A program made the translations under genes and the position numbers. Positions 67 to 29,728 of a DNA stretch of 42,185 nt are shown one piece after another. Numbering within the stretch: position 1 is the stretch's first letter; each line of letters starts with the position of its first letter. The notes under the pieces were generated by a model. The model saw only the letters and a list, made by a program, of their open reading frames with translations, was not told the origin of the DNA and did not search any database. Location: the NCBI GenBank assembly GCA_017466275.1, contig JAFTUL010000008.1:1-42185 (forward strand), given 5' to 3'. The DNA is from Clostridia bacterium (GTDB lineage: Bacteria; Bacillota; Clostridia; UMGS1883).

Positions 67-1449
67 TTATATAGATTTATTCAAAAAAGCTTTTATATAT
101 TCAATCTGTACTTCAATTGATGCAACTGATGTGCCACCTGCGGAAATACGCTTTTCGGCACAATTTTTAAGGTCGATTTCAGCATATAAGTCTTCCTCGA
201 AAAGGTTATCAAATTCCTTGTATTCGGGAAGAGTAAGCGTTTCAAGTGTTTTGCCCTCGGCAACACATTTGCCTACAATCTGACCAACTGTCTTATACGC
301 ACTGCGGAAAGGCTGACCTTTTTTTACAAGATAGTCTGCAAGGTCTGTTGCATTTATGAAGCCCTCACCTGCAGCGGCATACATCTTGTCTTTTCTTACG
401 GACATTGTTTCAATCATAGGAGCAAATACGCTGAGGCATTTTTTAACGGTCTCGCTACTGTCAAATATTGCTTCCTTATCCTCCTGCATATCCTTATTGT
501 ATGCAAGTGGAATACCCTTTAAGATTGTCAGCATTGCCATAAGGTCACCGTACACTATGCCGGTTTTCCTGCGGACAAGCTCTGCCATATCGGGGTTTTT
601 CTTCTGGGGCATAATTGATGAACCCGTTGTGTAAGAATCGTCAAGCTCAACGAATTTGAATTCCCAGGATGACCACAAAATTACTTCCTCTGCAAAACGG
701 GAAAGGTGTGTCATAATAAGAGCAAATGCACTCATAAGCTCCACGCAGAAATCACGGTCGGAAACGCCATCAATACTGTTTAATGTAATTCCGTCAAAAC
801 CGAGAAGCTTCGCTGTCATTTCGCGGTCGGTTTCGTAGGTTGTACCTGCCAACGCACAAGAGCCGAGGGGGGAGAAGTTCATTCTTTTTACGGCATCCTC
901 AATTCTGCCCATATCACGAATAAACATCATTGCATAGGCACAAAGGTGATGTGCAAACATAATCGGTTGCGCACGCTGAAGGTGTGTATAACCGGGGAGA
1001 ATTGTTTCCTTGTTTGCCTCTGCCTGCACTAAAATAGCACCTAAAAGCTTTTTTATAAGTGCAATGATTTCCTGTGCTTCATCACGCATAAAAAGGCGGA
1101 TATCGAGAGCAACCTGGTCATTACGGCTGCGTGCTGTGTGTAATCTTTTACCCACGTCACTGATTCTTTTGGTAAGCTCTGGTTCAACAAACATATGAAT
1201 ATCTTCCGCATCAAAATCGAACGCAAGTTTTCCGTCGTTAAGGTCGGAAAGAATTTCTTTAAGTCCCTTTATAATTGTATCACAGTCACTCTGTGAAATT
1301 ATGTTGCACGCTGCCAGCATTGTTGCATGTGCAATAGAGCCTTCAATATCCTGCTTATACATTTTGCAGTCAAAATGTATGGAAGAGTTAAAATCGTCAG
1401 CTTCTTTATCGAGGGCTTTGGAGAAACGCCCTGCCCACATCTTATCCAT
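67..1449 (-). CDS. argH: Argininosuccinate lyase
   Basis: 460-aa ORF with N-terminus MDKMWAGRFSK and the fumarate-lyase family signature GSSIMPQKKNPD. Lies directly downstream of argG. Confidence 0.97.
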   Translation of the reverse strand: MDKMWAGRFSKALDKEADDFNSSIHFDCKMYKQDIEGSIAHATMLAACNIISQSDCDTIIKGLKEILSDLNDGKLAFDFDAEDIHMFVEPELTKRISDVGKRLHTARSRNDQVALDIRLFMRDEAQEIIALIKKLLGAILVQAEANKETILPGYTHLQRAQPIMFAHHLCAYAMMFIRDMGRIEDAVKRMNFSPLGSCALAGTTYETDREMTAKLLGFDGITLNSIDGVSDRDFCVELMSAFALIMTHLSRFAEEVILWSSWEFKFVELDDSYTTGSSIMPQKKNPDMAELVRRKTGIVYGDLMAMLTILKGIPLAYNKDMQEDKEAIFDSSETVKKCLSVFAPMIETMSVRKDKMYAAAGEGFINATDLADYLVKKGQPFRSAYKTVGQIVGKCVAEGKTLETLTLPEYKEFDNLFEEDLYAEIDLKNCAEKRISAGGTSVASIEVQIEYIKAFLNKSI

Positions 1450-1473
1450 TAAAACACCTACTTTAAAGTATTA

Positions 1474-1496
1474 GGCTGGTGACAGTGTCACCAGCC
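1474..1496 (-). other. Intercistronic GC-rich hairpin between argG and argH
   Basis: 10-bp perfect stem GGCTGGTGAC / GTCACCAGCC with a 3-nt loop, 18 nt after the argG stop. No clear U-tract on the minus strand, so a processing/stability element or weak attenuator is more likely than a full terminator. Confidence 0.4.
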
Positions 1497-1514
1497 ACAA
1501 ATTTTAGTTTAGAA

Positions 1515-2741
1515 TTATTTATTCTTGTTCTGAGCGTCAACCATAGCCTGCACTGCAATGGGAAGACCGTAAAGGTTGATAAAGCCTTCAGAATCCTTCT
1601 GGTTATAGTCGCTTTCGCCGAATGTTGCAATTTCTTCAGAGTAAAGAGAGTAATCGCTCCATACACCTGCGTTAATCATATTACCCTTGTAGAGCTTAAG
1701 TCTTACCTTACCGGTAACCTTTTCCTGAGTTTTGTCAACGAATGCACTGAGAGCCTCACGAAGAGGTGTAAACCACTGACCGTTGTAAACAAGCTCTGCA
1801 AAGGTGATGGAAAGCTTCTGCTTTTCGTGGAGAGTCATCTTGTCAAGGCAGATTGATTCGAGAACGCTGTGTGCCTTGTAAAGGATTGCACCACCGGGAG
1901 TTTCGTAAACACCACGGCACTTCATACCTACAAGACGGTTTTCAACGATGTCAAGAAGACCGATACCGTTCTTTCCACCAACTTCATTGAGGGCAAGGAT
2001 AATTTCCTTTGCACTCATTTTTTTGTCGTTGAAAGCTACGGGAACACCCTGCTCAAAGTCAAGTGTGATATATGTGGGTTCATCGGGAGCCATAATGGGA
2101 GATACGCCCATTTCAAGGAAACCGGGCTTCTCATACTGCGGCTCATTACCTGTATCCTCGAGGTCAAGACCCTCGTGAGAAAGGTGCCAGAGGTTCTTAT
2201 CCTTGGAATAGTTTGTTTCACGGTTAATCTTAAGAGGAACAGTGTGTGCTTCTGCATATTCGATTTCCTCTTCACGGGACTTGATATCCCAGATTCTCCA
2301 GGGTGCGATAATGGGCATCTTGGGAGCAAAGTGCTTGATAGCAAGCTCAAAACGAACCTGGTCATTACCCTTACCTGTACAGCCGTGGCAGATTGCATCT
2401 GCACCCTCTTTAAGAGCTATTTCAACAAGACCTTTTGCAATGCAGGGACGTGCATGGCTTGTGCCGAGAAGATATTCCTCGTATACTGCACCTGCCTTCA
2501 TTGTGGGGATGATGTATTCATCTACATACTCTTCTGTAAGGTCAAGTACATAAAGCTTGGAAGCACCTGTCTTTAATGCCTTTTCTTCAAGACCGTCAAG
2601 TTCGTCATTCTGTCCTACATTACCTGCAACTGCGATAACTTCACAGTTGTTGTAGTTTTCCTTAAGCCACGGAATAATAATTGATGTGTCAAGTCCGCCG
2701 GAATAGGCGAGAACTACTTTTTTAATATCTTTTTTATCCAT
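1515..2741 (-). CDS. argG: Argininosuccinate synthase
   Basis: 408-aa ORF with the N-terminal ATP-PPase motif [11 protein letters not shown]. Strong RBS AAAGGAGAT 7-8 nt upstream of the ATG. Confidence 0.97.
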
Positions 2742-3161: not shown

Positions 3162-6100
3162 TTAATACTCGTAGATACCTTCAAATACCTTTTCAGCATC
3201 ACCGGTTAAGAATACGCCCTCGTCGGTATAACGAACGATAAGCTCGCCGCCCTCAACCCTTACGGAAATGTCGGTATCCTTTTCACAGTATCCGTTTTCA
3301 ACTGCCGCAATAGCTGCTGCACAGGCACCAGTACCGCACGCAGGTGTTTCACCGTTACCGCGTTCCCATACTCTCATTCTGATTGTACGCTTGTCAATAA
3401 TCTTTACAAACTCTGTATTAATACGCTCGGGGAAGATAGGTGCGTTTTCAAAACGGGGACCGATTGTGGGAACATCAATGTTGTATACGTTGTCACAGAT
3501 AACAACACAATGGGGATTACCGATTGAAAGACAGGTAATGTCGTACTTCTTACCACCGATTGTAACGGTTTCGTTTATAATCTTGTCACCGGGCATATCC
3601 ACGGGGATAGCCGCAGGTGAAAATTCTGCATCGCCCATCTGAACTGTTACACTTGTAACCTTTCTGTCGAAGAGGTGGAGAGTCAGCTTTCTGACACCGC
3701 TTGCAGTTTCAACTGTGATATGACGGTGCGATACATACCCATTATCCCAGAGGTACTTACCTACACAGCGGATAGCGTTACCTGCCATTCTGCCCTCACT
3801 ACCGTCGGTGTTGAATATACGCATCTTGGCATCTGCAACCTCAGACTTTTCAATAAGAACAAGTCCGTCTGCGCCGATACCTCTGCGACGGTCACTAAAC
3901 ACAATTGCAAGTGCTTCGGGGAATTTGATGCTTCCGTCAAAGTTATTGATGAATATATAGTCGTCGCCTGTACCTTCCATCTTGATGAAAGGAATGTTAA
4001 GCTTCTCTGTACGGAGCTTTGCAATGTCTGTAAGCTCTGTATTGTACTGGTTGAAACGGCTTAAGAGAATGTCAGCCAATGCATGTGCAGTATCAAGAGA
4101 GGTAAGACACGCAATGCTGAGCTGAAGTGCCCTGCGGTGAAGTCTTATAAACTTCTCAATTTCCTTGGGACGGCCGGAGTTGGTATGGATTATATAACCA
4201 ATCTTTTCGCTTTCAAGGAGTGAGTAAATCTTTTCACCCTCAACAGTTTCAACTGGAATACCGAGAGAATCAATGATAAGTGCATTCTTTTCATCGGCAT
4301 AGATTTCAAGTCCTGCATCAGAAAGCTTCTTTGCAAGCTCGATAAGGTCATACTTATCCTTGGAATCAACGCTGATATATACTCCGCCACGGCTTTCAAG
4401 GTTGAAGCCTGCGGAAATGAGTCCCTTGAAGAGTGCTTCATTAAGAGTCTTACCAATACCTAAAACTTCACCTGTGGACTTCATTTCAGGTCCTAAGATG
4501 GAGTTGATGCCTGAAAGCTTCTCAAATGAGAACACGGGAACTTTAACGGCATAGTAGGGGGGCATCTTGTAAAGTCCGCTTCCATATCCGAGGGAAAGGA
4601 GAGGTGCTCCCTGCATAACCTGTGTTGCAAGGTCAATCATAGGAATGCCTGTTACTTTACTGATATAAGGAACTGTTCTTGACGCTCTGGGGTTAACTTC
4701 AATAACATAAAGTTCGTTGTCATATACAACATACTGAATATTGATAAGTCCCTGTGTCTTAAGGGAAAGTGCCAGCTTTGTTGAGCAGTCAACAATCTTG
4801 TCAAGCATCTTGTCAGTTATATTGAAGGGAGGATATACAGCAATGGAGTCACCGCTGTGTACACCTGCACGCTCAACGTGTTCCATAATACCTGGGATAA
4901 GAACATCCTTACCGTCACTTATAATATCAACTTCAAGCTCTTTACCCATCATATATTTATCAACGAGAACGGGGTTCTCAATCTTCTGTGAAAGGATGAT
5001 GTCCATATACTGGATAACATCCTCTTCCTTGTAAGCAATTGTCATATTCTGACCGCCGATTACATAGGAGGGACGGAGAAGTACGGGGTAGCCGAGCTTT
5101 TCAGCAGCTTCGAGGGCTTCTTCCTTAGCCATTACGGAAAGACCGCTGGGACGCTTGATATCAAACTTTTCAAGGAGTGCATCGAACTGTTCGCGGTCCT
5201 CCGCCATATCGATACTCTTTGCAGAAGTACCAAGAATCTTGATTCCGCTTTCGTCAAGGAATTTAACAAGCTTGATAGCTGTCTGTCCGCCGAATGCAAC
5301 AACTACGCCCTCAGGCTTTTCAACCTCAATAACATTCATTACATCCTCGGGAGTGAGAGGCTCGAAATAAAGCCTGTCCGCTGTGTCAAAGTCAGTAGAA
5401 ACTGTTTCGGGGTTGTTATTAATGATAATAACCTCATACCCCATTTCCTTAAGTGCCCATACACAATGAACGGAGGAGTAGTCGAATTCGATACCCTGAC
5501 CGATTCTTATAGGACCGGAGCCGAGAACGATAACCTTTTTATTATCAGTAGAAACTGCTCTTGCTTCACAGTCTTCGTCATATGTTGAGTAGAAATAAGG
5601 CGTCTTTGCCTTGAATTCGCCACCGCAGGTGTCAACCATCTTGTAAACACAGTTCTTGTGTGCAGGGCATTTGCAACCGCTGATTTCCTCAAGGGCTTTG
5701 TCTGTAAAGCCAAGCTTTTTACCCTTTTCGTAAAGCTCGGGAGTAAGGTTTCCGCGGATGCTCTTTTCGAAGTCTACAATATTTTTAATCTTGGAAAGGA
5801 ACCACTTGTCAATTCTTGTGATTTCGTTGATTCTGTCAATTGTAATTCCTCTAACCAACGCTTCGTAAACAGTGAAAATTCTAAGGTCGTCAAGGTCATA
5901 AAGCTTCTTTTCAATATCTTCAATAGCCTGAACTTCCTTGTGCTGGAGAGTTTCTGTCTTAAGCTCTGCACCTCTTACAGCCTTCATAAGAGCTGATTCA
6001 AAGGAGTTACCGATAGACATAACCTCACCGGTAGCCTTCATCTGTGTGCCGAGCTTTCTGTCAGCATACACAAACTTGTCAAAGGGCCACTTGGGGAACT

Positions 6101-7166
6101 TAACTACCATATAGTCAACTGCAGGCTCGAAGCAAGCGTATGTTACGCCGGTAACATCATTTTTGATTTCATCAAGTGTGTAGCCCAGTGCAATCTTTGT
6201 AGTAACCTTTGCAATGGGGTAACCAGTTGCCTTACTTGCAAGGGCGGAAGAACGAGATACACGGGGGTTAACCTCGATTACCGCATATTCAAAGCTGTCG
6301 GGATTAAGAGCAAACTGACAGTTACAGCCACCTTCAATCTTAAGCTCTGTGATAATATCAAGTGCCGCTTTTCTGAGCATTGAATATTCTTTATCGGAAA
6401 GAGTTGCCGCAGGAGCAACAACTATACTGTCGCCTGTGTGAATACCAACGGGGTCAACATTTTCCATACTGCAGATGGTGATTGCATTGCCTGCATGGTC
6501 GCGCATAACCTCGAACTCTACTTCTTTCCAGCCGTAGATGTACTTTTCAATAAGTACCTGCGTAATGGGGGAAAGAGTAAGACCGTTGTTTGCAATCTTT
6601 GCAAGAGTATCGGCATCGTATGCAACACCGCCGCCTGCACCACCGAGGGTGAATGCGGGACGAACTATTACGGGGTAGCCGATTTTCTCTGCAATGCTGA
6701 GACATTCATCAACTGTTGTAGCAATGTCGGACGGAATACAACCCTGACCGATTTTGAGCATTGTTTCCTTGAAAAGCTCACGGTCCTCTGCACGGTCAAT
6801 AGCCTCAGCATTTGTACCGATAAGCTTAACGCCCATTTTGTCAAGGTAGCCTTCCTTGTCAAGCTGCATTGCAATTGTAAGACCTGTCTGTCCACCAAGG
6901 GATGCAAGGAGACTGTCGGGTCTTTCCTTTTCAATGATTCTCTTTATTGTATCTGCTGTAAGAGGCTCAAGATAGATTTCATCTGCAAGAGCCTTATCTG
7001 TCATAATTGTAGCAGGGTTGGAGTTTACAAGAACGATATTAACTCCCTCATCACGGAGGACACGGCAAGCCTGAGCGCCTGCGTAGTCAAATTCGGCAGC
7101 CTGTCCGATAACGATAGGGCCTGAACCGATAACGAGTACCTTTTTGATGTCTTTATTTTTAGGCAT
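3162..7166 (-). CDS. carB: Carbamoyl-phosphate synthase large subunit fused in frame to a C-terminal diaminopimelate epimerase (DapF) domain
   Basis: Residues ~1-1055 are colinear with CarB: two ATP-grasp repeats and an MGS-like tail ending ...TSLDTAHALADILLSRF. The last ~279 aa (nt 3165-4001) carry DapF hallmarks FIKMEGTGDDYIFI, GNAIRC, GNPHCV and ACGTGACA. No stop codon or RBS lies at the junction. Preferred start is ATG 7166 (MPKNKDIKKVLVIGSGPI) with RBS GGAGGAA 6 nt upstream; the ORF track extends to 7181. Confidence 0.9.
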   Translation of the reverse strand: MPKNKDIKKVLVIGSGPIVIGQAAEFDYAGAQACRVLRDEGVNIVLVNSNPATIMTDKALADEIYLEPLTADTIKRIIEKERPDSLLASLGGQTGLTIAMQLDKEGYLDKMGVKLIGTNAEAIDRAEDRELFKETMLKIGQGCIPSDIATTVDECLSIAEKIGYPVIVRPAFTLGGAGGGVAYDADTLAKIANNGLTLSPITQVLIEKYIYGWKEVEFEVMRDHAGNAITICSMENVDPVGIHTGDSIVVAPAATLSDKEYSMLRKAALDIITELKIEGGCNCQFALNPDSFEYAVIEVNPRVSRSSALASKATGYPIAKVTTKIALGYTLDEIKNDVTGVTYACFEPAVDYMVVKFPKWPFDKFVYADRKLGTQMKATGEVMSIGNSFESALMKAVRGAELKTETLQHKEVQAIEDIEKKLYDLDDLRIFTVYEALVRGITIDRINEITRIDKWFLSKIKNIVDFEKSIRGNLTPELYEKGKKLGFTDKALEEISGCKCPAHKNCVYKMVDTCGGEFKAKTPYFYSTYDEDCEARAVSTDNKKVIVLGSGPIRIGQGIEFDYSSVHCVWALKEMGYEVIIINNNPETVSTDFDTADRLYFEPLTPEDVMNVIEVEKPEGVVVAFGGQTAIKLVKFLDESGIKILGTSAKSIDMAEDREQFDALLEKFDIKRPSGLSVMAKEEALEAAEKLGYPVLLRPSYVIGGQNMTIAYKEEDVIQYMDIILSQKIENPVLVDKYMMGKELEVDIISDGKDVLIPGIMEHVERAGVHSGDSIAVYPPFNITDKMLDKIVDCSTKLALSLKTQGLINIQYVVYDNELYVIEVNPRASRTVPYISKVTGIPMIDLATQVMQGAPLLSLGYGSGLYKMPPYYAVKVPVFSFEKLSGINSILGPEMKSTGEVLGIGKTLNEALFKGLISAGFNLESRGGVYISVDSKDKYDLIELAKKLSDAGLEIYADEKNALIIDSLGIPVETVEGEKIYSLLESEKIGYIIHTNSGRPKEIEKFIRLHRRALQLSIACLTSLDTAHALADILLSRFNQYNTELTDIAKLRTEKLNIPFIKMEGTGDDYIFINNFDGSIKFPEALAIVFSDRRRGIGADGLVLIEKSEVADAKMRIFNTDGSEGRMAGNAIRCVGKYLWDNGYVSHRHITVETASGVRKLTLHLFDRKVTSVTVQMGDAEFSPAAIPVDMPGDKIINETVTIGGKKYDITCLSIGNPHCVVICDNVYNIDVPTIGPRFENAPIFPERINTEFVKIIDKRTIRMRVWERGNGETPACGTGACAAAIAAVENGYCEKDTDISVRVEGGELIVRYTDEGVFLTGDAEKVFEGIYEY

Positions 7167-8211
7167 TCTTGCTTCCTCCAATCATTTCAAAAAATTTGTT
7201 GTACAGAAAGTTTGTTTCGTTGGGTCCGTCACCGGCAATGGGATGGAACTGAATTGAAACTGCATTCTTTCCGTTATATTCAATACCCTCACAGCTCTTG
7301 TCGTTAAGGTTTTCATAAGTAACTGTTGCACATTCAGGAAGTGTATCAGTTACAACTGTATAGCTGTGATTCTGGCTTGTTATATAAACACGACCTGTTT
7401 CTATCTCTCTAACGGGCTGGTTTGCACCTCTGTGTCCGTAGGTAAGCTTTTCAACCTTTGCACCGTTTGCCATTGCAAGGAGCTGGTGACCAAGGCCTGT
7501 TGCGAAGATGGGCTTTTTACCGAAAACTTCCTTAATAACATTTATAGCATCTATCATATCCTCAGGATTTCCGGGACCGTCGGAAAGGTAAACCGCATCA
7601 TAGGATAAAAGCTCGTCCGCTTTTGTGTTATAGGGGAGAACAGTAACTGTTGCACCTTTGTCAGCAAGTGTCTTAACGGCTGACTTGGTAGTACCGAAGT
7701 CAAGGAGAGCAATTTTTGCATCTCCGTCACCAACTGTGTACTTTTCCTTGGTGCTGACAATTGAAACTGCATCCTTTGTATCAAAGGCGGTAAGATTTGC
7801 ACCGTTAGGCTCTTTTGTGGTGATGCGGGCGGTCATTGTACCCTCTTCACGGATAATCTTGGTGATTTCTCTCGTGTCGATTCCGCATATACCCATAATG
7901 CCCTGTTCTTTAAGGAAATTATCTAAAGTTCCCTCACAGCGGAAGTTTGAGGGCATATCACAGATTTCACGAACAATATATCCCTTTAAATGCACCTTTT
8001 CACTTTCCATATCGGAGTAAATCATACCGTAGTTACCGATAAGGGGATATGTCTGAACAAGAATCTGTCCGTAGTAGCAAGGGTCTGTAAGAGCTTCAAT
8101 ATAGCTTCCCATAGATGTGGAAAAGACGATTTCGCCGGTTTCCTCTGTTACTGCACCGAAGCTTTCACCACAGAAAACTTTTCCGTTTTCCAGAATCAAA
8201 TATGCTTTCAT
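7159..8211 (-). CDS. carA: Carbamoyl-phosphate synthase small subunit with a degenerate glutaminase triad
   Basis: 350-aa ORF colinear with CarA (LSDGPGNP, ...GLGHQLLAMANGA..., QNHSY, QFHP). The nucleophile position reads ATGLGHQ instead of GICLGHQ, and HPE is replaced by HPI. Confidence 0.92.
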   Translation of the reverse strand: MKAYLILENGKVFCGESFGAVTEETGEIVFSTSMGSYIEALTDPCYYGQILVQTYPLIGNYGMIYSDMESEKVHLKGYIVREICDMPSNFRCEGTLDNFLKEQGIMGICGIDTREITKIIREEGTMTARITTKEPNGANLTAFDTKDAVSIVSTKEKYTVGDGDAKIALLDFGTTKSAVKTLADKGATVTVLPYNTKADELLSYDAVYLSDGPGNPEDMIDAINVIKEVFGKKPIFATGLGHQLLAMANGAKVEKLTYGHRGANQPVREIETGRVYITSQNHSYTVVTDTLPECATVTYENLNDKSCEGIEYNGKNAVSIQFHPIAGDGPNETNFLYNKFFEMIGGSKNA

Positions 8212-8249
8212 ATAACCATGCCTTTCTGAATTTTAGTATAATAATTGGC

Positions 8250-9152
8250 TTACGCCATAAGTTTAACCATAACTGCCTTTTGTGCGTGGAGTCTGTTTTC
8301 AGCTTCTTCAAAAATTTCGTCTGCGTGCTGTTCGATTATCTCAGCGGTGATCTCCTCACCACGGTGTGCGGGAAGACAATGAAGAACCATTGCACCGTCA
8401 TTTGCAACCTGCATAAGCTCAGAATTAATCTGATAATCCTTGAAGATTTTTGCTCTTTCCTGAAATTCTTCTTCCTGCCCCATAGATGCCCATACATCTG
8501 TATAAAGAACATCTGCAGCGGAAGCAGCTTCCTTAATATCGGAAGTACAGGTGAATTTTCCAGTTTCATATGCCCACTTCATAATGTCGGCATCAGGCTC
8601 ATACCCCTTGGGACAGGCGATGGAAACTTCCATACCCATCTTGATACCGCCGACGATAAGGGAGTTTGCCATATTGTTACCGTCACCCACGAAACACATC
8701 TTGAGTCCCTCAAGCTTGCCTTTCTTTTCACGTATTGTCATAAGGTCAGCAAGCACCTGACAGGGATGACAGTAGTCTGTAAGACCGTTTATAATCGGAA
8801 TGTTACCGAATGCTGCCAAATCCTCAACCTCTTTCTGTTCAAAAGTACGAATCATAATACCGTCAAGAAATCTGGAAAGAACACGTGCTGTATCCTGAAT
8901 AACCTCACCACGGCCTATCTGCAGGTCGCGTGGGCTTAAGAAAAGCGCTGTACCGCCAAGGTCAAATATACCAACTTCAAAAGATACTCTTGTTCTTGTG
9001 GAAGACTTCTGGAAAATCATACCGAGAGTCTTACCTTTCAAAAGGTGATGCTCGATACCGTTTTTCTTTTCATACTTCAGCTTATCCGCAAGGTCAAGAA
9101 TTTCTACAATCTCTTCCTTGGTAAGGTCACCGAGTTTTAATAAGTGTTTCAT
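8250..9152 (-). CDS. argF: Ornithine carbamoyltransferase
   Basis: 300-aa ORF with the carbamoyl-phosphate motif SSTRTR, ornithine-site motifs DVWASMG and HCLPAHRGEE. Stop/start overlap with argD. Confidence 0.95.
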   Translation of the reverse strand: MKHLLKLGDLTKEEIVEILDLADKLKYEKKNGIEHHLLKGKTLGMIFQKSSTRTRVSFEVGIFDLGGTALFLSPRDLQIGRGEVIQDTARVLSRFLDGIMIRTFEQKEVEDLAAFGNIPIINGLTDYCHPCQVLADLMTIREKKGKLEGLKMCFVGDGNNMANSLIVGGIKMGMEVSIACPKGYEPDADIMKWAYETGKFTCTSDIKEAASAADVLYTDVWASMGQEEEFQERAKIFKDYQINSELMQVANDGAMVLHCLPAHRGEEITAEIIEQHADEIFEEAENRLHAQKAVMVKLMA

Positions 9153-10312
9153 AATTTACATGCCTCCTTGATTATGTCAAGAGCTTTTATAAGCTCATTG
9201 GTTTCTATGTTAAGCGGGGGAAGAAGTCTTACCTTATCCTTTGCAGTAAGTACCAACACACCCTTATCTATGCAGTAGTTTACAACTTCCTTTGCTTCCT
9301 TGGTTGTTTTAATTCCCATCATCAGTCCAAGACCGGAGATGCTTTCAATACCCTCTGCCCCCGAAAGTGTTTCACGGATAAGGTTAGCTTTTTTAGTAAC
9401 CTCCTCCAAGAATTCATCGGTAAGTCTTGACAGAACATTTACCGCACCGCTGCAGCAAACGGGGTTTCCGCCGAAGGTGGAGCCGTTAAGTCCGGGTTCA
9501 AAAATATCCTTTACCTTTTCACCGAGCATTGTTGCACCGAGGGGAAGACCGCCTGCAAGTCCCTTTGCAGTTGAAACAACATCAGGCTTGATACCGTAGT
9601 GCATATATGCGTAAAGCTTACCCGTTCTGCCGTTTCCTGTCTGTACCTCGTCAATAATCAGTACAAGGTCGTTTTCCTTGCAGAGTCTGGCTGCTTCTTC
9701 AATAAATTCTTTATCAAGAGCGTTAACGCCGCCCTCACCCTGAACAATTTCAATCATTATACCGCAGCACTTGTTGTTTTTGACTGCTTCATTAAGCGAG
9801 TTGATGTCATTGGGTGTTGCGTGCACAAAGCCCTCTGTAAGTGGAAGAAATTCCTTGTGGAAGTTTTCCTGTCCCGTTGCAGCAAGTGTTGTATGTGTTC
9901 TTCCGTGGAAGCTTTTTTCAAGAGTTACTATTGTATAGTAATCAGCACCTTTGTTGAGTGCACCGTACCTTCGTGCAACCTTTATGGCACATTCGTTTGC
10001 TTCTGCGCCGGAGTTGGAGAAGAATACATTCTTCATCCCCGTCCTTTCGCAGATCATCTGGGCAAGGTCAGCACAAGGTGATGTGTAGTAGAGGTTGGAG
10101 GTATGGGCAAATTTGTCAAGCTGTGCCTTTACTGCATCCACCCACTCGCTGTCACACGCACCGAATGTATTTACGGCAATACCGCTTCCTAAATCGATAT
10201 ATTCCTTACCGTCGCTGCCCTTAAGGATTGCTCCCTTTCCTCCGACAATTTCCACGGGGAAACGGCCATAGGTAGGTGCGACAAACTTACTGTCTTTTTC
10301 AAATGTGTTCAT
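9149..10312 (-). CDS. argD: Acetylornithine aminotransferase
   Basis: Class-III PLP aminotransferase with the PLP-lysine context DVVSTAKGLAGG. Preferred start is ATG 10312 (MNTFEKD) with RBS AAGGAG 7 nt upstream; the ORF track start 10336 contains that RBS. Confidence 0.93.
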   Translation of the reverse strand: MNTFEKDSKFVAPTYGRFPVEIVGGKGAILKGSDGKEYIDLGSGIAVNTFGACDSEWVDAVKAQLDKFAHTSNLYYTSPCADLAQMICERTGMKNVFFSNSGAEANECAIKVARRYGALNKGADYYTIVTLEKSFHGRTHTTLAATGQENFHKEFLPLTEGFVHATPNDINSLNEAVKNNKCCGIMIEIVQGEGGVNALDKEFIEEAARLCKENDLVLIIDEVQTGNGRTGKLYAYMHYGIKPDVVSTAKGLAGGLPLGATMLGEKVKDIFEPGLNGSTFGGNPVCCSGAVNVLSRLTDEFLEEVTKKANLIRETLSGAEGIESISGLGLMMGIKTTKEAKEVVNYCIDKGVLVLTAKDKVRLLPPLNIETNELIKALDIIKEACKL

Positions 10313-10377
10313 AGTCAGACTCCTTTTATATCCCAAATTACGGTGCGTACATAAAGTACTGCACCGTAAAAATAAGT

Positions 10378-11232
10378 TTACTCTCCCTTGACAAACATAG
10401 TACCGATACCTTCGTTGGTCAAGGTTTCGATAAGTATGGAATGGGGGATTCTGCCGTCAATTATAAATACTTTTCTCACACCGCTGTTGATTGCATCAAT
10501 ACAGCACTCAACCTTGGGAATCATACCGCCGGAGATAACACCCTCCTCAACAAGCTTGGGTGCTTCATTCACAACGATTTTGGAAATAAGAGTAGAGGGG
10601 TCATCCTTATCACGAAGAATACCCTCAATATCAGTCATGGAAATAAGACTTTCAGCACCTAAAATTCCTGCAATTTTGGATGCTGCTGTATCAGCGTTGA
10701 TATTATAAACATTGCCCTCTTTGTCACAGCCCACTGTGGAAATTACGGGAATATAACCCTTTTCCAATACATCTGTAATAGGCTCTACATTAACATTGGT
10801 AATTTCACCAACGAAGCCCAGTTCGGGATTGAGAACTTCTGCCTCAATCATATGACCGTCAATACCGCAAAGGCCGACAGCCTTACCACCTTTGTGATGA
10901 AGAAGGTTTACAAGATTCTTGTTAACCTTACCTGCAAGTACCATTTGTACAATGTCAACTGTTTCTTTATCAGTAACACGCAGACCGTTTACAAACTGGG
11001 ATTCCTTGCCGACAGCCTTGAGCATCTGAGTGATTTCGGGACCGCCACCGTGAACGAGGACTACTTTAATACCGATAAGGGAAAGAAGAACAATATCCCC
11101 CATAACGGCATCCTTAAGCTCGTCATTAATCATTGCATTACCGCCGTACTTAACAACGATAATTTTATCTGTATATTTCTGTATGTAAGGAAGTGCCTGT
11201 GTAAGGACTTCTGCGCGCTGTGCGTTTGTCAT
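10378..11232 (-). CDS. argB: Acetylglutamate kinase
   Basis: Amino-acid kinase fold with IVVKYGGNAM, VLVHGGGP and NINADTAA. Preferred start is ATG 11232 (MTNAQRAE) with RBS GGAGGAA upstream. Confidence 0.95.
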   Translation of the reverse strand: MTNAQRAEVLTQALPYIQKYTDKIIVVKYGGNAMINDELKDAVMGDIVLLSLIGIKVVLVHGGGPEITQMLKAVGKESQFVNGLRVTDKETVDIVQMVLAGKVNKNLVNLLHHKGGKAVGLCGIDGHMIEAEVLNPELGFVGEITNVNVEPITDVLEKGYIPVISTVGCDKEGNVYNINADTAASKIAGILGAESLISMTDIEGILRDKDDPSTLISKIVVNEAPKLVEEGVISGGMIPKVECCIDAINSGVRKVFIIDGRIPHSILIETLTNEGIGTMFVKGE

Positions 11233-11267
11233 TGTTCTTTCCTCCAAAACTTTTCTTCGTTACAGTA

Positions 11268-12509
11268 TCATGTGCGGTAGTCACCGTTGATTTTTACATA
11301 ATCGTAAGTCAGGTCGCATCCCCAGGCAGTGGCAGATACATCACCGTCGTTAAGGTTTATTATAATATTAATTTCCTTTTCAAGCAATATTTTCTTTGCA
11401 ATTTCTTCAGAAAAATCTACACCTGCACCGTTTTTGCAAACTGCAATTGTTCCCTCTTTAGAACTGAAAGATACGTCGATTTTGTTAACATCCACATCTG
11501 CACCACTGTAACCGATTGCACAAAGCACTCTGCCCCAGTTTGCATCTGCACCGAACATAGCCGCTTTAAGCAGGGAAGAGCAGATAACGGATTTTGCAAC
11601 TGTTTTTGCACATTTTTCATCCTTTGCACCGCTTACCGCACACTCAAGAAGCTTTGTTGCACCCTCGCCATCACCTGCAATCATCTTGCACAGATGGATT
11701 GTAACTGTGTTAAGAGCCTTTGCAAAAATTTCAAAATCCTCGCCCTCAGACTCAATCATAGTATTTCCTGCAAGGCCGTTTGCCATAACACTGACCATAT
11801 CATTTGTGGAGGTATCACCGTCAATGCTAATCATATTGAAAGTGTTCTTTATATCTGTTGAAAGTGCTTTCTGAAGCATTTCGGGAGAAATTGCGGCATC
11901 TGTTGTAATGAACACAAGCATTGTTGCCATATTGGGATGAATCATACCGCTGCCTTTAGCAATACCTGCAATCTTACACTCCTTACCGCCAAGGGTAAAG
12001 CTTACTGCAATTTCCTTTTTTACAAGGTCTGTTGTGAGGATTGCTTCGGAAGCATAATCTGCGTGCTCGCTGTCTTTGCCTAGACCTGCTGCAAGCTCTT
12101 TCATTCCGTTTGCAATCGGTTCAAGGTCAAGAGGCTGACCTATAACACCGGTAGATGCTACGATAACATCCTCAGCCTTGACATCTGTATGTTCCGAAAC
12201 AAGCTTGCACATTGCTTCTGCAATTTCTATTCCGTTTGCGTTACAGGTGTTTGCATTACCGCTGTTGCAGATAACTGCCTGTGCGTAACCGTTTGCAATG
12301 TTGTTTTTTGTAACTGTAAGGGGAGCACCCTTAACGAGATTCGTTGTATATGTAGCAGCCGCAGCAGCGGGAACATCACTTACGATAAGTGCAATGTCAC
12401 GCTTTGTACGGTTTTTACGGATTCCGCAGTGAATACCGTTTGCAGAAAACCCTTTCGGAGCACATACGCCACCATCTATTATTTTAAACATCTGTATCAT
12501 TCCTTTCAT
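11268..12509 (-). CDS. argJ: Bifunctional ornithine acetyltransferase / N-acetylglutamate synthase
   Basis: 413-aa ORF with the autoproteolysis site MATMLVFITTDA. ATG 12509 overlaps the argC stop (ATGA). An alternative start is ATG 12491 (MFKIIDGGV) with RBS AAAGGAA. Confidence 0.95.
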   Translation of the reverse strand: MKGMIQMFKIIDGGVCAPKGFSANGIHCGIRKNRTKRDIALIVSDVPAAAAATYTTNLVKGAPLTVTKNNIANGYAQAVICNSGNANTCNANGIEIAEAMCKLVSEHTDVKAEDVIVASTGVIGQPLDLEPIANGMKELAAGLGKDSEHADYASEAILTTDLVKKEIAVSFTLGGKECKIAGIAKGSGMIHPNMATMLVFITTDAAISPEMLQKALSTDIKNTFNMISIDGDTSTNDMVSVMANGLAGNTMIESEGEDFEIFAKALNTVTIHLCKMIAGDGEGATKLLECAVSGAKDEKCAKTVAKSVICSSLLKAAMFGADANWGRVLCAIGYSGADVDVNKIDVSFSSKEGTIAVCKNGAGVDFSEEIAKKILLEKEINIIINLNDGDVSATAWGCDLTYDYVKINGDYRT

Positions 12510-13437
12510 ATATCGAGCATTGCAGAGGGTTTTTCACCCATTACAATGTTCATACATTCAAGTGCCGCACCGGAGGCACCCTTACCGAGATTGTCATATC
12601 TTGCAATGAGGAGGATTCTCTCATCATTACCGGAAACGGTTATCTGCATTGAATCCTTGAAAGAAAGTGCATTTGCACGTATAAGTCCGCTTTCATCAAT
12701 GCTTTCAAGATAAGTAACAATTTCGCCTGTATATTTTTCTTTGTATGCCTTTTTAATATCTTCTACGGTAAATCCGTCGTTAAGCTGGCTTTTGAAAATC
12801 GGTACGGTTACTGCCATACCACTGTAAAAATCCGATACAATGGGGCAGAATATGGGGGCATTTGTAAGCCCTGTCACCTTGCCCATTTCGGGAAGATGCT
12901 TGTGGGTCTGACCAAGTGCATACTGACGGGGAGCATCGAAAAGCTTATTTCTTTCTTCATCCTCATATTCTGCAATCATTTTCTTACCACCGCCGCTGTA
13001 ACCTGTAATGCTGTGGCAGGTGAGAAGAGTGTCTTTGTCAATAATCCCATTTTCAATGAGGGGGTATACAAGAGCAATGAATCCGCTTGCGTGACAGCCT
13101 GGCACTGCAATTCTTTTTGCAGAAGCTACCTTTTCAAAATGCTCCTTTGAAAGCTCGGGAAAACCGTATGCCCAGTTATCATTTGTTCTGTGTGCCGTGG
13201 AGGTGTCAAGAACAACTACGTTTTCATTTTCAATCATATTTACTGCTTCTATTGCCGCCGCGTCGGAAGACAAAGGAACGCAATGTCGCAGGAATTAAGT
13301 GCTTTCTTTCTTGCATCGTTATCCTTGCGAAGCTCCTCGGGAAGCTTTATAAGTTCTATATCATTTCTTTTGGAAAGCCTTTCGACTATCCTCAGACCCG
13401 TAGTGCCGGCACTGCCGTCAATAAATACCTTTTTCAT
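12506..13437 (-). pseudogene. argC: N-acetyl-gamma-glutamyl-phosphate reductase (short/type-2 form) interrupted by a 1-nt frameshift
   Basis: Two adjacent ORFs together cover one ArgC. The 5' part MKKVFIDGSAGTTGLRI...DIAFLCLP then reads TRRQ-stop (stop 13249-13251). The 3' part continues in another frame as (S)DAAAIEAVNM...VPGCHASG... The frames switch at ~13262-13267 (CTT CCG ACG versus expected CTT CCN GAC). Confidence 0.85.
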
Positions 13438-21108: not shown

Positions 21109-23667
21109 ATGAAACGAATTGCACTGGGAATACTGGCACACGTTGACAGCGGAAAAACAACCCTTTCCGAAGCGATGCTTTATACGGCAGGGGAAATTCG
21201 TACCCTTGGCAGGGTTGACCACCGTGATGCCTTCCTTGATACAAATGAAATAGAAAAAGACCGTGGAATCACCATATTTTCCAAACAAGCGGTGATAAAT
21301 CTTGAGAACACGCAGATAACACTCCTTGATACCCCCGGTCACGTAGATTTTTCGGCAGAAACGGAAAGAGTTTTGTGGACACTTGATGCCGCAGTACTGG
21401 TTGTCAGCGGAAGCGAGGGTGTGCAGAGTCATACTCAGACTTTGTGGAAGCTTCTTTCGGAACATGCTATTCCAACATATATTTTTGTCAATAAAATGGA
21501 TATGGACGGAACCGATAAGGACAAGATTTTAGCTGACCTTAACAAGAGTTTGGGCAGCGGTTTTGTCGTGTTTAATAATGAGGATAGGGAAGCGTTTTTT
21601 GAGGAAGCTGCATTATGCAGTGAGGAGCTTTGTAATTCGTTCCTTGAAAACGGAACAATTACTGATGAAGAAATTTCAGAAGCAATCGAAAGCAGGAAGA
21701 TGTTCCCCTGCTATTTCGGTTCTGCACTGAAGCTTCAGGGTGTAGAGGAATTTTTGAGTGGTGTTGATAAATACACCACCTATAATGGGGAAAATCCTCG
21801 GCTTGGGGCAAGGATTTTTAAAATTTCCGAGGATGAGAAAGGAAACCGCCTTACCCATATGAAAATAACAGGAGGAGTTCTCCGTGTCCGTGATAAGATA
21901 CAGTCGGGCGATGCCGAGGAAAAAGTCAGCGAAATCCGTGTGTACTCCGGTGCAAAGTACAAAAATGTGCAGGAAGTGTATGCAGGCGATGTATGTGCCG
22001 TTTTGGGTATCACAACTCTTTTGGGCGGTCAGGGAATAGGATTTGAGGATAATTCTCCTGCCCTTACATTGGAGCCTGTATTTAATTACCGTGTGGTGCT
22101 TGAGGATGGGGTAGACCCCCGTGTAGCCCTTGCACAGCTCCGCAAATTGGAGGAAGAGGAAACTCAGCTTCGTGTAGGGTGGAACAGTGCCCTTGGTGAA
22201 ATAAATATTCAGCTTATGGGCGAGGTGCAGCTTGAAGTATTGCAGAAAATTCTCGCAGACCGTTTTAAACTTAATGTAGAGTTTGCTCAGGGAAGCATCA
22301 TATATAAAGAAACTATAACAGCCCCCGTTGAGGGTGTGGGACATTACGAGCCACTTCGTCATTATGCCGAGGTGCATCTTCTTCTTGAACCATTAAAAAG
22401 AGGGGCAGGACTGGTGTTTGATACGGACTGCAGTGAGGACTATTTGGGCAAAAACTGGCAAAGGCTTGTGCTTACCCACCTTAATGAAAGAAGACATATC
22501 GGGGTCCTTACGGGGAGTGCAATTACCGATATGAAAATAACCCTGAAATCGGGAAAAGCACACCTGAAACATACCGAGGGCGGTGATTTCAGACAGGCAA
22601 CCTACCGTGCGGTACGTCACGGATTGAGATGTGCCGAAAGCATACTTCTGGAGCCTTATTATGAGTTTATTTTAGAAGTTCCCACCGACTCTACGGGCAG
22701 GGCGATGACCGACCTTTCTGAGATGGGTGCGGAAATGTCTGCCCCCGATTTAATAGGGGATATGTCCGTTATAAAGGGAAGTGCCCCAGTAAGCAAAATC
22801 CGTTCATATCAGCGTAGCGTAACCTCCTATACTCACGGTCTCGGAAAACTCTCTTGCTCGTTCAAGGGCTACGGCACTTGTGTGAATCAGGAAGAGGTTA
22901 TTGCCGAAACGGGTTATAACTGTGACAGTGACGTTGAAAATACAGCAGACAGCGTATTCTGTGAACACGGTGCAGGCTTCAATGTACCGTGGCATCAGGT
23001 GACAGAATATATGAACCTTGAAAGTATCTTCGATGAAAAAACAGAAGACATCACACCCCATCATTTTGCAAAGAAAACCTCATCCTCGTACAGCGATGAT
23101 GAGCTTATGGCAATATTTGAACGTACCTACGGAAAAATTGTCCGTAAAAACCACAACGCAATGCGTACTCCCAAGGATGCGGCACCGCCGAAGAAACACC
23201 GCAGTGTACCGCAGAAGCAGGGACCCGGCTATCTCCTTATTGACGGTTATAACATAATATTTGCATGGGACGAGCTTAAAGAGGTTGCAAAGGATAACCT
23301 CGAGGATGCACGCAATATGTTAATTGACCGTGTATGCTCTTACCGTGCACTTCACTCACAGGAAATTATCCTTGTGTTTGATGCCTACAAGGTTAAAGGA
23401 AACCGCGGGGAGGTGGAGAAAATCCATAACATCAGCGTGGTTTACACCAAGGAGGCACAGACTGCCGATGCCTATATTGAAAAGACTGCACACGAGCTTG
23501 GAAAGAAGCATCACGTACAGGTTGCAACCAGCGACGGGCTTGAGCAGATGATAATATTGGGAAGCGGTGCAGTCAGGATAAGTGCCGCGGCATTTATCAA
23601 GGATATGGAGGATACAGGCAGGGAAATAGAGAAAATTCTGCGGGACATTTCAAATAAAAATGTATAA
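21109..23667 (+). CDS. TetM/EF-G-like translational GTPase fused to a C-terminal Rae1/YacP-type NYN (PIN-like) endoribonuclease domain
   Basis: G1 AHVDSGKT, G3 DTPGH and G4 NKMD; the N-terminus MKRIALGILAHVDSGKTTLSEAMLY resembles TetM/TetO. A GTPase-plus-domains-II-V body of ~640 aa is followed by a basic linker. Residues 705-852 (nt 23221-23664) carry YacP/Rae1 motifs LLIDGYN, LVFDAY, QTADAYIE and VATSDGLEQ. Confidence 0.9.
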   Translation: MKRIALGILAHVDSGKTTLSEAMLYTAGEIRTLGRVDHRDAFLDTNEIEKDRGITIFSKQAVINLENTQITLLDTPGHVDFSAETERVLWTLDAAVLVVSGSEGVQSHTQTLWKLLSEHAIPTYIFVNKMDMDGTDKDKILADLNKSLGSGFVVFNNEDREAFFEEAALCSEELCNSFLENGTITDEEISEAIESRKMFPCYFGSALKLQGVEEFLSGVDKYTTYNGENPRLGARIFKISEDEKGNRLTHMKITGGVLRVRDKIQSGDAEEKVSEIRVYSGAKYKNVQEVYAGDVCAVLGITTLLGGQGIGFEDNSPALTLEPVFNYRVVLEDGVDPRVALAQLRKLEEEETQLRVGWNSALGEINIQLMGEVQLEVLQKILADRFKLNVEFAQGSIIYKETITAPVEGVGHYEPLRHYAEVHLLLEPLKRGAGLVFDTDCSEDYLGKNWQRLVLTHLNERRHIGVLTGSAITDMKITLKSGKAHLKHTEGGDFRQATYRAVRHGLRCAESILLEPYYEFILEVPTDSTGRAMTDLSEMGAEMSAPDLIGDMSVIKGSAPVSKIRSYQRSVTSYTHGLGKLSCSFKGYGTCVNQEEVIAETGYNCDSDVENTADSVFCEHGAGFNVPWHQVTEYMNLESIFDEKTEDITPHHFAKKTSSSYSDDELMAIFERTYGKIVRKNHNAMRTPKDAAPPKKHRSVPQKQGPGYLLIDGYNIIFAWDELKEVAKDNLEDARNMLIDRVCSYRALHSQEIILVFDAYKVKGNRGEVEKIHNISVVYTKEAQTADAYIEKTAHELGKKHHVQVATSDGLEQMIILGSGAVRISAAAFIKDMEDTGREIEKILRDISNKNV

Positions 23668-28661: not shown

Positions 28662-29621
28662 TTACAACAGATAATCGCTGAGCTGTCTTCTTGAATTTGC
28701 CTTAAATTTAGATGATGGCTCGGAAACCGTTTCTCCGTCAAAGAATTTCGGGGAAACAGTAACCTCGGAAGAAACCACATCTCCGTTTATCATACCAAGG
28801 AGTGTGCTTATAACCTCGGCACAGAAAATACCGCCATCTTCACCAATGCAGGTTATATCTAACGGTGTGTTTTGCCATCTGCAACCCAGAGAAATTACGG
28901 AAATATCTTCGGGGACGGAAAGCCCGTTTCTGCTTTGACTCATATATGTTTTAAAAGCAATATCGTAATTATCACACACAATTGCCGAATATTCTTTGCT
29001 TTCAGAGTAGTCTGTATATATTGAAAAATCCCTTGAGGCATCCTGAATTCCCGAAAGAATCTTTTGATTATCACCCATAAACAGAATCTTTTTATGTCCA
29101 AGCTCGGAAAGTTTCTCTCCTGCCAAATTTCCGCACTCATACTGATTCACAGTGACAGAAACTGCACCTTTCTGCTCTGCACCTGCAAAAAGCAGGGGAG
29201 TAGCGTTTGCCTTTATAATCTCAATGCTCTTTTTCGGGAGTGTACAACCAAGGACAATTATTCCGTCGGCATTACGGCTGAGTGCACTTGTAACGGCACT
29301 TTCGCAAAGGTCGGTGTTTCCCTGCGTGTTCATCAGAAGTATTCCGTAACCGCGTTTTCGAAGCATAAGCTCAATTTCCTTTACAGAATTTGCCGTATTG
29401 ACAGAAGTAATATCATCAACAATAAGTGCAATACTCATTGTCTTACCCCCACGCAGAAAACCTGCAGAGAGGTTGGGGATATAACCCATCTTTTTTGCAG
29501 TATCGTTAATGTAAGTTTTTACCTCTTTGGAAATATCTTTCATATCACGGAGTGCATGGGAAACAGTATTAACCGAGTAACCTGTCTTTTTTGCAATGTC
29601 GGAAAGTGTAATCTTTTTCAT
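28662..29621 (-). CDS. LacI-family transcriptional regulator
   Basis: N-terminal HTH MKKITLSDIAKKTGYSVNTVSHALR followed by a periplasmic-binding-protein-like sugar-binding core. ATG 29621 has RBS GAGGTG 6 nt upstream. The ORF-track extension to 29963 has no protein-like sequence and overlaps the cca start. Confidence 0.88.
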   Translation of the reverse strand: MKKITLSDIAKKTGYSVNTVSHALRDMKDISKEVKTYINDTAKKMGYIPNLSAGFLRGGKTMSIALIVDDITSVNTANSVKEIELMLRKRGYGILLMNTQGNTDLCESAVTSALSRNADGIIVLGCTLPKKSIEIIKANATPLLFAGAEQKGAVSVTVNQYECGNLAGEKLSELGHKKILFMGDNQKILSGIQDASRDFSIYTDYSESKEYSAIVCDNYDIAFKTYMSQSRNGLSVPEDISVISLGCRWQNTPLDITCIGEDGGIFCAEVISTLLGMINGDVVSSEVTVSPKFFDGETVSEPSSKFKANSRRQLSDYLL

Positions 29622-29728
29622 AAAATTCACCTCTACATTAATTATAATGTAAACCGGAAAAAATTGCAATAGTATATTGTAGAAATATTGTGTTTGGTAT
29701 ATAATAGAAGCAAAGAGGAGGTGTAACC

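Follow-up and report, generated by a model that had tools for sequence, protein, structure and literature searches.

A 42,185-nucleotide stretch of DNA from a Clostridia bacterium (assembly GCA_017466275.1, contig JAFTUL010000008.1), referred to here as the window, encodes a carbamoyl phosphate synthetase (CPS) whose small subunit, CarA, appears to be a working subunit without a glutaminase triad. The best explanation, which we consider probable, is that the CPS depends on ammonia and keeps CarA for structural and tunnel roles. CarA is taken to be a working subunit because it is under purifying selection and is present in metatranscriptome contigs, and free ammonia is the suggested nitrogen donor because the triad loss is coupled with retained function. 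The initial annotation of the window had suggested a possibly ammonia-dependent CPS with a dead glutaminase triad; the triad loss was borne out, but the enzyme is not a single oddity, being instead one case of a widespread and repeatedly evolved state. The features on which the argument turns are the following.

8077..8079, minus strand: codon of Cys45, at the position of the E. coli active-site Ser47 (alignment)
7495..7497, minus strand: GGC codon of Gly239, at the position of the E. coli nucleophile Cys269 (alignment, codon read, contigs of runs X1–X3)
7243..7245, minus strand: CAT codon of His323, matching E. coli His353 and retained by this strain alone
7237..7239, minus strand: ATT codon of Ile325, at the position of the E. 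coli triad Glu355 (alignment, codon read)
7159..8211, minus strand: carA, CPS small subunit of 350 amino acids (Pfam, NCBIfam, gap-free alignment to E. coli CarA, AlphaFold2 model, and the ratio of nonsynonymous to synonymous substitution rates, dN/dS)
4065..7166, minus strand: CarB portion of the fusion, comprising both ATP-grasp synthetase halves and an allosteric domain of the large subunit (NCBIfam, Pfam)

By sequence, fold, and context, the protein belongs to the CarA family. It matches PF00988 (CPSase_sm_chain) over residues 5–130 (E = 1.8e-50) and PF00117 (GATase) over residues 169–342 (E = 1.6e-39), and scores 419.4 bits against NF009475 (cut-off 221) and 382.9 bits against TIGR01368 (cut-off 307.35). 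Its AlphaFold2 model has a predicted local distance difference test (pLDDT) value of 91.5 and a predicted template modeling (pTM) score of 0.91, and Foldseek aligned the model to the small subunit of E. coli CPS (1jdb) with a template modeling (TM) score of 0.94 at ~36% identity, and to the N-terminal moiety of human CPS1 with a TM score of 0.91. The residue register was set by phmmer alignment to the E. coli CarA structures 1jdb, 1c30, and 1cs0: the elbow motif PIFATGLGHQLLA pairs gap-free with E. coli PVFGICLGHQLLA, and the His–Glu motif SIQFHPIAGDGP pairs gap-free with E. coli SFQGHPEASPGP (QFHPIAG versus QGHPEAS). A misaligned register or a displaced Cys was rejected, both motifs being gap-free and the elbow containing no Cys at all. 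The nucleophile Cys of the G-x-C-x-G elbow motif is absent, the sequence here being A-T-G-L-G with Gly239 in its place; the triad Glu, two residues past the His, is replaced by Ile325; and the triad His is present in the window strain as His323. Both the alignment and a direct reading of the codons agree with the initial annotation, which had assigned Gly (GGC at 7495–7497) to the catalytic Cys position and Ile (ATT at 7237–7239) to the triad Glu, and which had regarded the alignment to CarA as unambiguous and the Glu-to-Ile change as requiring more than one nucleotide change; indeed, ATT lies three base changes away from GAA/GAG. Thus CarA appears to lack the catalytic features that define an active class I amidotransferase and is predicted to be unable to hydrolyze glutamine; with both the nucleophile and the triad acid absent, EC 6.3.5.5 is not an appropriate class for the holoenzyme.

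An error of sequencing or assembly, or a pseudogene peculiar to this strain, can be counted as refuted as the source of the triad loss. In its favor is a defect elsewhere in the window: a run of C in argC has lost one nucleotide at 13264, as judged by comparison with relatives, and the deletion splits the gene. The absent base is present in contigs of three DNA runs and of the two RNA runs with contigs reaching across it, all from the same or close strains, indicating that the split should be an assembly error or a rare variant of the window and not a pseudogene; checking the carA codons for error was therefore warranted. Five independent assemblies each contributed a contig on which the identical 350-residue protein was called, and Logan contigs of runs X1–X3 showed zero differences from the window over positions 7110–8300. 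The strain in run X4 carries the synonymous codons GGA (for GGC) and ATC (for ATT), together with CGT (Arg) at the His323 codon (7244 T>C on the plus strand). The independent assemblies and contigs read GGC or GGA and never TGC, in line with the earlier view that sequencing error was unlikely; the key codons vary only synonymously in other strains, and the Cys-less state is conserved across the clade.

Pairwise comparisons over 17 taxa gave a dN/dS of 0.118 for the whole of carA (0.079 for the N-terminal domain and 0.131 for the GATase domain), with values for its partners of 0.042 (carB), 0.058 (dapF), 0.039 (argF), 0.087 (argD), and 0.084 (argJ). Purifying selection thus acts on carA, which is clearly maintained. 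The ratio of CarA to CarB distances was 3.9–5.1 in close Cys-less pairs versus 1.37 in canonical pairs; that is, CarA evolves faster relative to CarB in Cys-less than in intact-triad pairs, the relaxation expected of a lost activity. Furthermore, carA and its arg neighbors are covered by contigs of four bovine gut metatranscriptomes, from a strain in which the codon at the Glu355 position is ACC (Thr). The dN/dS values, the conservation throughout the clade, and the confidently predicted fold ruled out a pseudogene or drift.

A search of 5.8 billion proteins defined a close clade of 67 clusters at 90% identity, 69–96% identical to the query, and residues were counted in 96 non-redundant sequences from it. 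All 96 have Gly at the nucleophile position (269 in E. coli numbering, which is used for residue positions from here on), and none has Glu at position 355, where Ile, Val, Cys, or Thr is found instead. Position 353 is Arg or Ala in every member except the window strain. Such a pattern of triad substitutions lies far beyond chance. The relatives thus have Gly at the first of the two positions and a hydrophobic or Cys residue at the second, a check that the initial annotation had proposed. The same annotation had seen the triad as partly lost, and while its Gly and Ile stand, the retained His is a peculiarity of the window strain, the clade normally lacking the whole triad. The CAT codon of His323 is one transition away from the Arg codon CGT, so that the His looks like a back-mutation by a single transition, at a site no longer under constraint. 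In a scan of species-representative genomes, 80 loci were collected, all from uncultured gut or rumen metagenome-assembled genomes (MAGs) labeled Clostridia, Oscillospiraceae, or Acutalibacteraceae, and 26 of them belong to the close clade. The host is an uncultured gut/rumen Clostridia bacterium related to Oscillospiraceae/Acutalibacteraceae, consistent with the gut or rumen anaerobe envisaged at the outset: every relative is a MAG from gut or rumen, and the runs in which the sequence occurs come from gut and bovine gut metagenomes.

More detailed comparisons with intact-triad relatives showed that the Cys-less proteins are changed at Ser47, Lys202, Asn240, and Asp244, with position 313 variable; in the window clade, the pocket changes are S47C, K202T, N240D, and D244N. 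Little or no variation was seen, within the close clade or among the remaining sampled Cys-less proteins, at Gly241, Gly243, Leu270, Gly271, His272, and Gln273, and likewise at His290, Gly292, Asn294, Asn311, and His312. A Ser-to-Cys/Ala change at position 47 accompanies the triad loss in the close clade, with Cys in 76 and Ala in 16 of the 96 sequences (Ala or Ser in 20). Among the other sampled Cys-less loci, Ser47 has become Cys in 49 of 54, so that Cys prevails here in Cys-less CarA of the Oscillospirales lineages sampled, and Cys is also found at this position in locus L038, which retains Cys269. The residue is Thr in the commonest Acutalibacteraceae type and Ala or another residue in further lineages.

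The same state was found well beyond the close clade. A HMMER search covered 1.84 billion cluster representatives at 50% identity, and the nucleophile Cys is missing from 98 of the best 150 CarA hits, replaced by Gly (84), Asp (7), Ala (3), Ser (2), or Asn (2). The backbone of the nucleophile elbow is strained, which would favor Gly once the thiol is unneeded. Mostly lost in these 98 representatives are His353 (retained in 11), Glu355 (31), Ser47 (16), Asn240 (16), and Gln273 (59), with Cys at position 47 in 13; retained are Gly241 (97), Gly271 (97), His272 (93), His290 (94), Gly292 (96), and His312 (91). Catalytic and glutamine-contact side chains thus appear to decay, while the elbow backbone and the stretch toward CarB appear to persist. 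Many Cys-less CarA proteins of Acutalibacteraceae end only a few residues past the former His-Pro-Glu motif (QFEPxD-stop). The resulting C-terminal loss of ~20–25 residues, at loci L040, L043–L046, L048–L075, and L078, includes the Gly359-Pro360 segment that forms tunnel wall in E. coli, and would open the tunnel to solvent.

One cultured carrier was identified, namely Thermosyntropha lipolytica DSM 11003 (P0201, WP_073092557.1), with Gly at the nucleophile position and the His replaced. No further cultured carriers emerged from a profile search with the Acutalibacteraceae-type CarA, which returned MAG proteins only, or from a cluster look-up, which returned no cultured names. The RefSeq name of WP_073092557.1 reads "glutamine-hydrolyzing ... 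small subunit," and the MAG protein P0398, also with Gly for Cys and the His replaced, is likewise labeled glutamine-hydrolyzing. This naming looks like systematic mis-annotation by family models that include no check of the triad.

The triad appears to have been lost in place in an orthologue, because an intact-triad protein occupies the same syntenic operon. This protein, P0069, has an intact Cys–His–Glu triad, is 61% identical to the window CarA, and lies in the context TGT-RNaseJ-argCJBDF-carA-carB::dapF-argGH, the same as in the window. A diverged paralogue as the origin of the Cys-less CarA was rejected on this ground, the closest intact-triad protein being the one in the same syntenic operon. 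On a tree of CarB, the intact-triad loci L086, L088, and L028/L031 interleave with Cys-less loci, and L086 is the sister of the window clade, its CarB being 83.6% identical. The interleaving therefore implies at least four to six independent losses of the triad, as far as the CarB tree can be trusted. Intermediate states are also found: in L030, only the Cys is changed, to Gly, with His and Glu intact, and in L038, the Cys is kept and the His is changed to Asn. As a separate observation, one MAG bin (JAZRTB01) holds two different Cys-less carA loci, L023 and L026. The CarA of L023 falls in the close clade, yet its CarB fragment is 71% identical to the window CarB, compared with 93–98% elsewhere; this mismatch could reflect bin contamination, a chimeric contig, or recombination.

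Cys-less CarA is encoded in argF-carA-carB::dapF operons, in which argF was confirmed by NCBIfam as encoding ornithine transcarbamylase, and also in pyrimidine operons, namely pyrR-pyrB-pyrC-pyrF-carA-carB (L047) and pyrR-pyrC-pyrF-carA-carB (L080). Two further arrangements are carA-carB::dapF-pyrF (L091) and a standalone carA-carB::dapF (L090). The Cys-less state is thus not confined to an arginine paralogue; it is very widespread and has evolved repeatedly, in both arg- and pyr-linked CPS operons. Its occurrence in pyr operons argues against a canonical CPS always backing up the Cys-less one. No second carA was found in the 42-kb window or in the 10-kb flanks of the scanned related loci.

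In the window itself, carA lies in a complete arginine-biosynthesis operon on the minus strand, argC-argJ-argB-argD-argF-carA-carB-argG-argH, as identified by NCBIfam matches, with argG and argH (67..2741) downstream of carB supplying the rest of the pathway. The remaining features of the operon are the following.

8250..13437, minus strand: argC, argJ, argB, argD, and argF, upstream of carA (NCBIfam; synteny with L001–L025, L079, and L086)
12506–13437, minus strand: argC, split within the window by the 1-nt deletion at 13264
3162..3992, minus strand: DapF domain at the C-terminus of CarB, an in-frame fusion (TIGR00652, PF01678, catalytic-Cys motifs)
1515–2741, minus strand: argG (NCBIfam; relatives with the same gene order)
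67–1449, minus strand: argH (NCBIfam; relatives with the same gene order)

The carA and carB genes are separate, the small and large moieties being unfused, unlike in CPS I. The stop codon TAA of carA (7161–7159) overlaps the start codon ATG of carB (7166–7164) by 8 nt (ATGCCTAA, 7166–7159), and carA is predicted to be translationally coupled to carB; their adjacency is common to the related loci that have both genes on the contig. The large-subunit open reading frame (ORF) of 1334 amino acids, read from the ATG at 7166–7164 (3162–7166, minus strand), encodes a full CarB followed in frame by a full DapF, and the same 1334-residue call for the fused protein was made on L081. The CarB part scores 1458 bits against NF003671 and 1434 bits against TIGR01369, and contains CPSase_L_D1/D2 twice, D3, and a weak MGS-like match (E = 2.9e-4), in keeping with two ATP-grasp halves plus oligomerization and allosteric domains. 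Its N-terminal half aligns end to end with E. coli CarB (1bxr_A), with Glu217 and the tunnel-gate residues Cys232, Ala251, and Ala314 identical. The two ATP-grasp synthetase halves of CarB are thus preserved together with its ammonia-tunnel gate, the latter being formed in E. coli by Cys232, Ala251, and Ala314 (PMC4655335).

The DapF domain scores 268.5 bits against TIGR00652 (cut-off 114.65), covering model positions 2–268 of 270, matches PF01678, and contains both catalytic-Cys motifs, GNPHC and CGTG. CarB–DapF fusions were found in ~60 related loci, as ORFs of 1336–1369 amino acids. Because the intact-triad loci L028, L031, L086, and L088 have it too, the fusion must predate the triad loss. 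CarB is unfused in L037, L047, and L080, which are pyr-operon loci. Full-text literature searches gave no description of a CarB–DapF fusion.

Elsewhere in the window, an 852-residue ORF (21109–23667, plus strand) encodes a complete translational GTPase of the EF-G/Tet(M) type (GTP_EFTU, EFG_II–IV, EFG_C) followed at the C-terminus by a YacP-like NYN nuclease domain, an unusual combination. A LacI-family regulator (28662–29963, minus strand) has an N-terminal extension of ~118 amino acids ahead of its helix-turn-helix domain, which may be a mere upstream alternative start of the mechanical ORF call.

With respect to mechanism, no thioester would form without Cys269, and the CPS would take free NH3 from its ammonia-rich gut surroundings. 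NH3 would react with carboxyphosphate, and the resulting carbamate would be phosphorylated to carbamoyl phosphate at a cost of two ATP, the direct use of NH3 avoiding the extra ATP of glutamine synthetase. The E. coli CarA mutants C269G/C269S and H353N reportedly lose glutamine-dependent synthesis and keep NH3-dependent synthesis. CarA would be kept since CarB needs a structural partner, and it probably forms the mouth of the ammonia tunnel or its first stretch, the emptied pocket and the conserved stretch admitting NH3. On this basis, the elbow and tunnel-side motifs (GPG, G-L-G-H-Q, G-H-x-G-x-N, and Q-N-H) would stay while the catalytic and glutamine-contact residues decay. Both this role of CarA and the energetic and ecological rationale are our inference.

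CarA could instead be a regulatory sensor subunit, binding glutamine or another small ligand without hydrolysis and modulating CarB, the nitrogen still coming from free ammonia. Such a role would suit the near-invariance of Gly241, Gly243, Leu270, Gln273, Asn311, and His312 in the window clade and the constraint on the GATase domain, and the E. coli C269S mutant is said to bind glutamine and stimulate the ATPase partial reaction. However, several other pocket residues are altered even in the window clade, and older Cys-less lineages have decayed further, most clearly at Ser47 and Asn240 and also at Gln273. Many Acutalibacteraceae copies have lost the whole C-terminal segment past the His-Pro-Glu motif, and the conserved residues belong mostly to backbone or tunnel-type motifs. 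We regard a sensor as unlikely. Glutamine would still be the donor if the nucleophile had moved to Cys45, near the substrate carbonyl, or if a glutaminase docked in trans. The Ser47-to-Cys change indeed accompanies the Cys269-to-Gly change in several apparently independent lineages, Gly at position 269 would make room for it, and the window strain keeps His323. Relocation to Cys45 was nevertheless judged unlikely in view of the variability of position 47 among Cys-less CarA proteins, including 20 of the 96 close relatives with Ala or Ser, the Thr of the commonest Acutalibacteraceae type, and the scarcity of Cys in distant representatives; moreover, every other clade member has Arg or Ala in place of the general-base His, and the Glu has been lost. 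As for a glutaminase acting in trans, the operon contains no candidate gene. Continued use of glutamine by either route is very improbable.

The operon CPS might also be a dispensable relic with a drifting CarA, carbamoyl phosphate being supplied by a canonical CPS or a carbamate kinase encoded elsewhere. Many Firmicutes possess two CPSs (PMC8121099), the examination for a second copy covered 42 kb of the genome, and the allosteric nucleotide-binding residues appear lost, as expected of an arginine-specific paralogue. A relic is difficult to reconcile, however, with purifying selection on both CarA domains and very strong selection on CarB, with a state fixed across a clade in which CarA has diverged to 69–71% identity, or with coverage of the gene by the contigs of the four bovine gut metatranscriptomes. 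An intact-triad orthologue occupies the same operon position, Cys-less CarA is part of the CPS of pyr operons in other lineages, and relics would not be kept convergently in dozens of lineages. We consider this possibility quite unlikely.

The preferred explanation, an ammonia-dependent CPS with CarA as a structural and tunnel subunit, has several points to contend with. The Km of E. coli CPS for NH4+ is very high, and efficient use of ammonia would need adaptation. The conservation of Gln273, Asn311, and His312 in the clade makes some ligand binding at the old site possible. The search for a second canonical carA/pyrAA covered the 42-kb window of this genome, and the locus scan was seeded with peptides of the Cys-less protein, biasing the sample toward Cys-less relatives. 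The CarB tree behind the count of independent losses is a neighbor-joining tree without support values, and metatranscriptome contigs can include DNA carry-over. In the allosteric domain of CarB (~4065–4300), alignment to E. coli CarB showed T974D, T977N, and a deletion of the Lys993 segment, with Ser948 and Lys954 kept. Thr974, Thr977, and Lys993 are, we assume, the residues that bind the phosphate of uridine and inosine monophosphate in E. coli CarB, and if so, nucleotide regulation has probably been lost. These changes would fit an arginine-dedicated enzyme and leave room for a separate pyrimidine CPS.

Overall, the window locus and ~100 clusters of relatives at 50% identity represent natural bacterial CPSs in which the triad is gone and the enzyme is under selection. 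If ammonia is used, vertebrate CPS I has many independent bacterial analogues, forming a natural experiment in the shedding of a glutaminase, and one ATP is saved per carbamoyl phosphate in these taxa. Models of gut and rumen nitrogen flux would then route arginine and pyrimidine nitrogen via free ammonia, and the "glutamine-hydrolyzing" labels given by annotation pipelines, as for WP_073092557.1 and P0398, would be wrong. A wider proposal, which we put forward tentatively as a possibility short of even odds, is that large parts of the Clostridia of gut and rumen, among them Oscillospirales, have repeatedly made their only CPS obligately ammonia-dependent, with the triad-less CarA as the intake port of the tunnel. 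If true, arginine and pyrimidine synthesis in these organisms would rely directly on free ammonia, the textbook view of all bacterial CPSs as glutamine-dependent would be overturned, and the need for ammonia long known in many anaerobes of gut and rumen could have a molecular explanation.

With respect to known systems, E. coli CarAB (EC 6.3.5.5; 1jdb, 1c30) has the same two-gene, two-subunit layout, with the structural similarity of CarA given above, and its GPG, GLGHQ, and QNH motifs are kept in the window CarA. The window protein differs in having Gly for Cys269, Ile for Glu355, Cys for Ser47, Thr for Lys202, and Asp for Asn240, and the window CarB differs in its C-terminal DapF and in the allosteric nucleotide-site residues, which are not conserved. 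The E. coli CarA mutants C269G/C269S and H353N (1c30, 1a9x) are hit at the same positions as the window CarA, and the NH3-dependent synthesis they reportedly keep is the activity suggested for the window CPS; those changes are laboratory-made, whereas the state described here is natural, fixed, and old, with further remodeling of the pocket.

According to a 2015 structural paper, all CPS types except CPS1 use glutamine (PMC4655335), and a 2021 paper states that all eubacterial CPSs characterized so far are glutamine-dependent (PMC8121099). On its own, bacterial CarB can run on ammonium (Trotta et al., 1971, cited in PMC8121099). Full-text searches gave no description of a naturally Cys-less bacterial CarA, the nearest case being CarB2 (BT3866) of Bacteroides thetaiotaomicron, proposed to be an ammonium-dependent CPS at high gut ammonium (PMC8121099). 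CarB2 parallels the window CPS in belonging to a gut anaerobe, in its high-ammonium niche, and in the proposed bypass of glutamine. It is, however, an orphan large subunit beside a canonical CarAB, whereas in the window the small subunit is kept, triad-less and apparently translationally coupled. In B. thetaiotaomicron, carAB and dapLF share a high-affinity-ammonium locus (PMC8121099); in the window, carB is fused to dapF. The archaeal ammonia-dependent enzymes, namely the carbamate-kinase-like CPS of Pyrococcus and the minimal CPS of Methanobrevibacter smithii (cited in PMC8121099), have a carbamate kinase fold or a half-size synthetase and no CarA-like subunit, whereas the window CPS has retained CarA.

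A functional parallel would be vertebrate CPS I (EC 6.3.4.16; 5dot/5dou), in which, as in the window CarA, a glutaminase-like domain is retained and its nucleophile Cys is replaced. Human CPS1 has Ser294 in place of the Cys, cannot use glutamine, and takes ammonia from the environment (PMC4655335). CPS I is a mitochondrial, eukaryotic enzyme consisting of one fused polypeptide with obligate N-acetylglutamate activation, whereas the window enzyme has separate bacterial subunits, Gly instead of Ser at the nucleophile position, and an allosteric domain with a weak match to MGS-like. Thus, the window CPS would work like CPS I without being of the CPS I lineage, and the two appear to have arisen independently.

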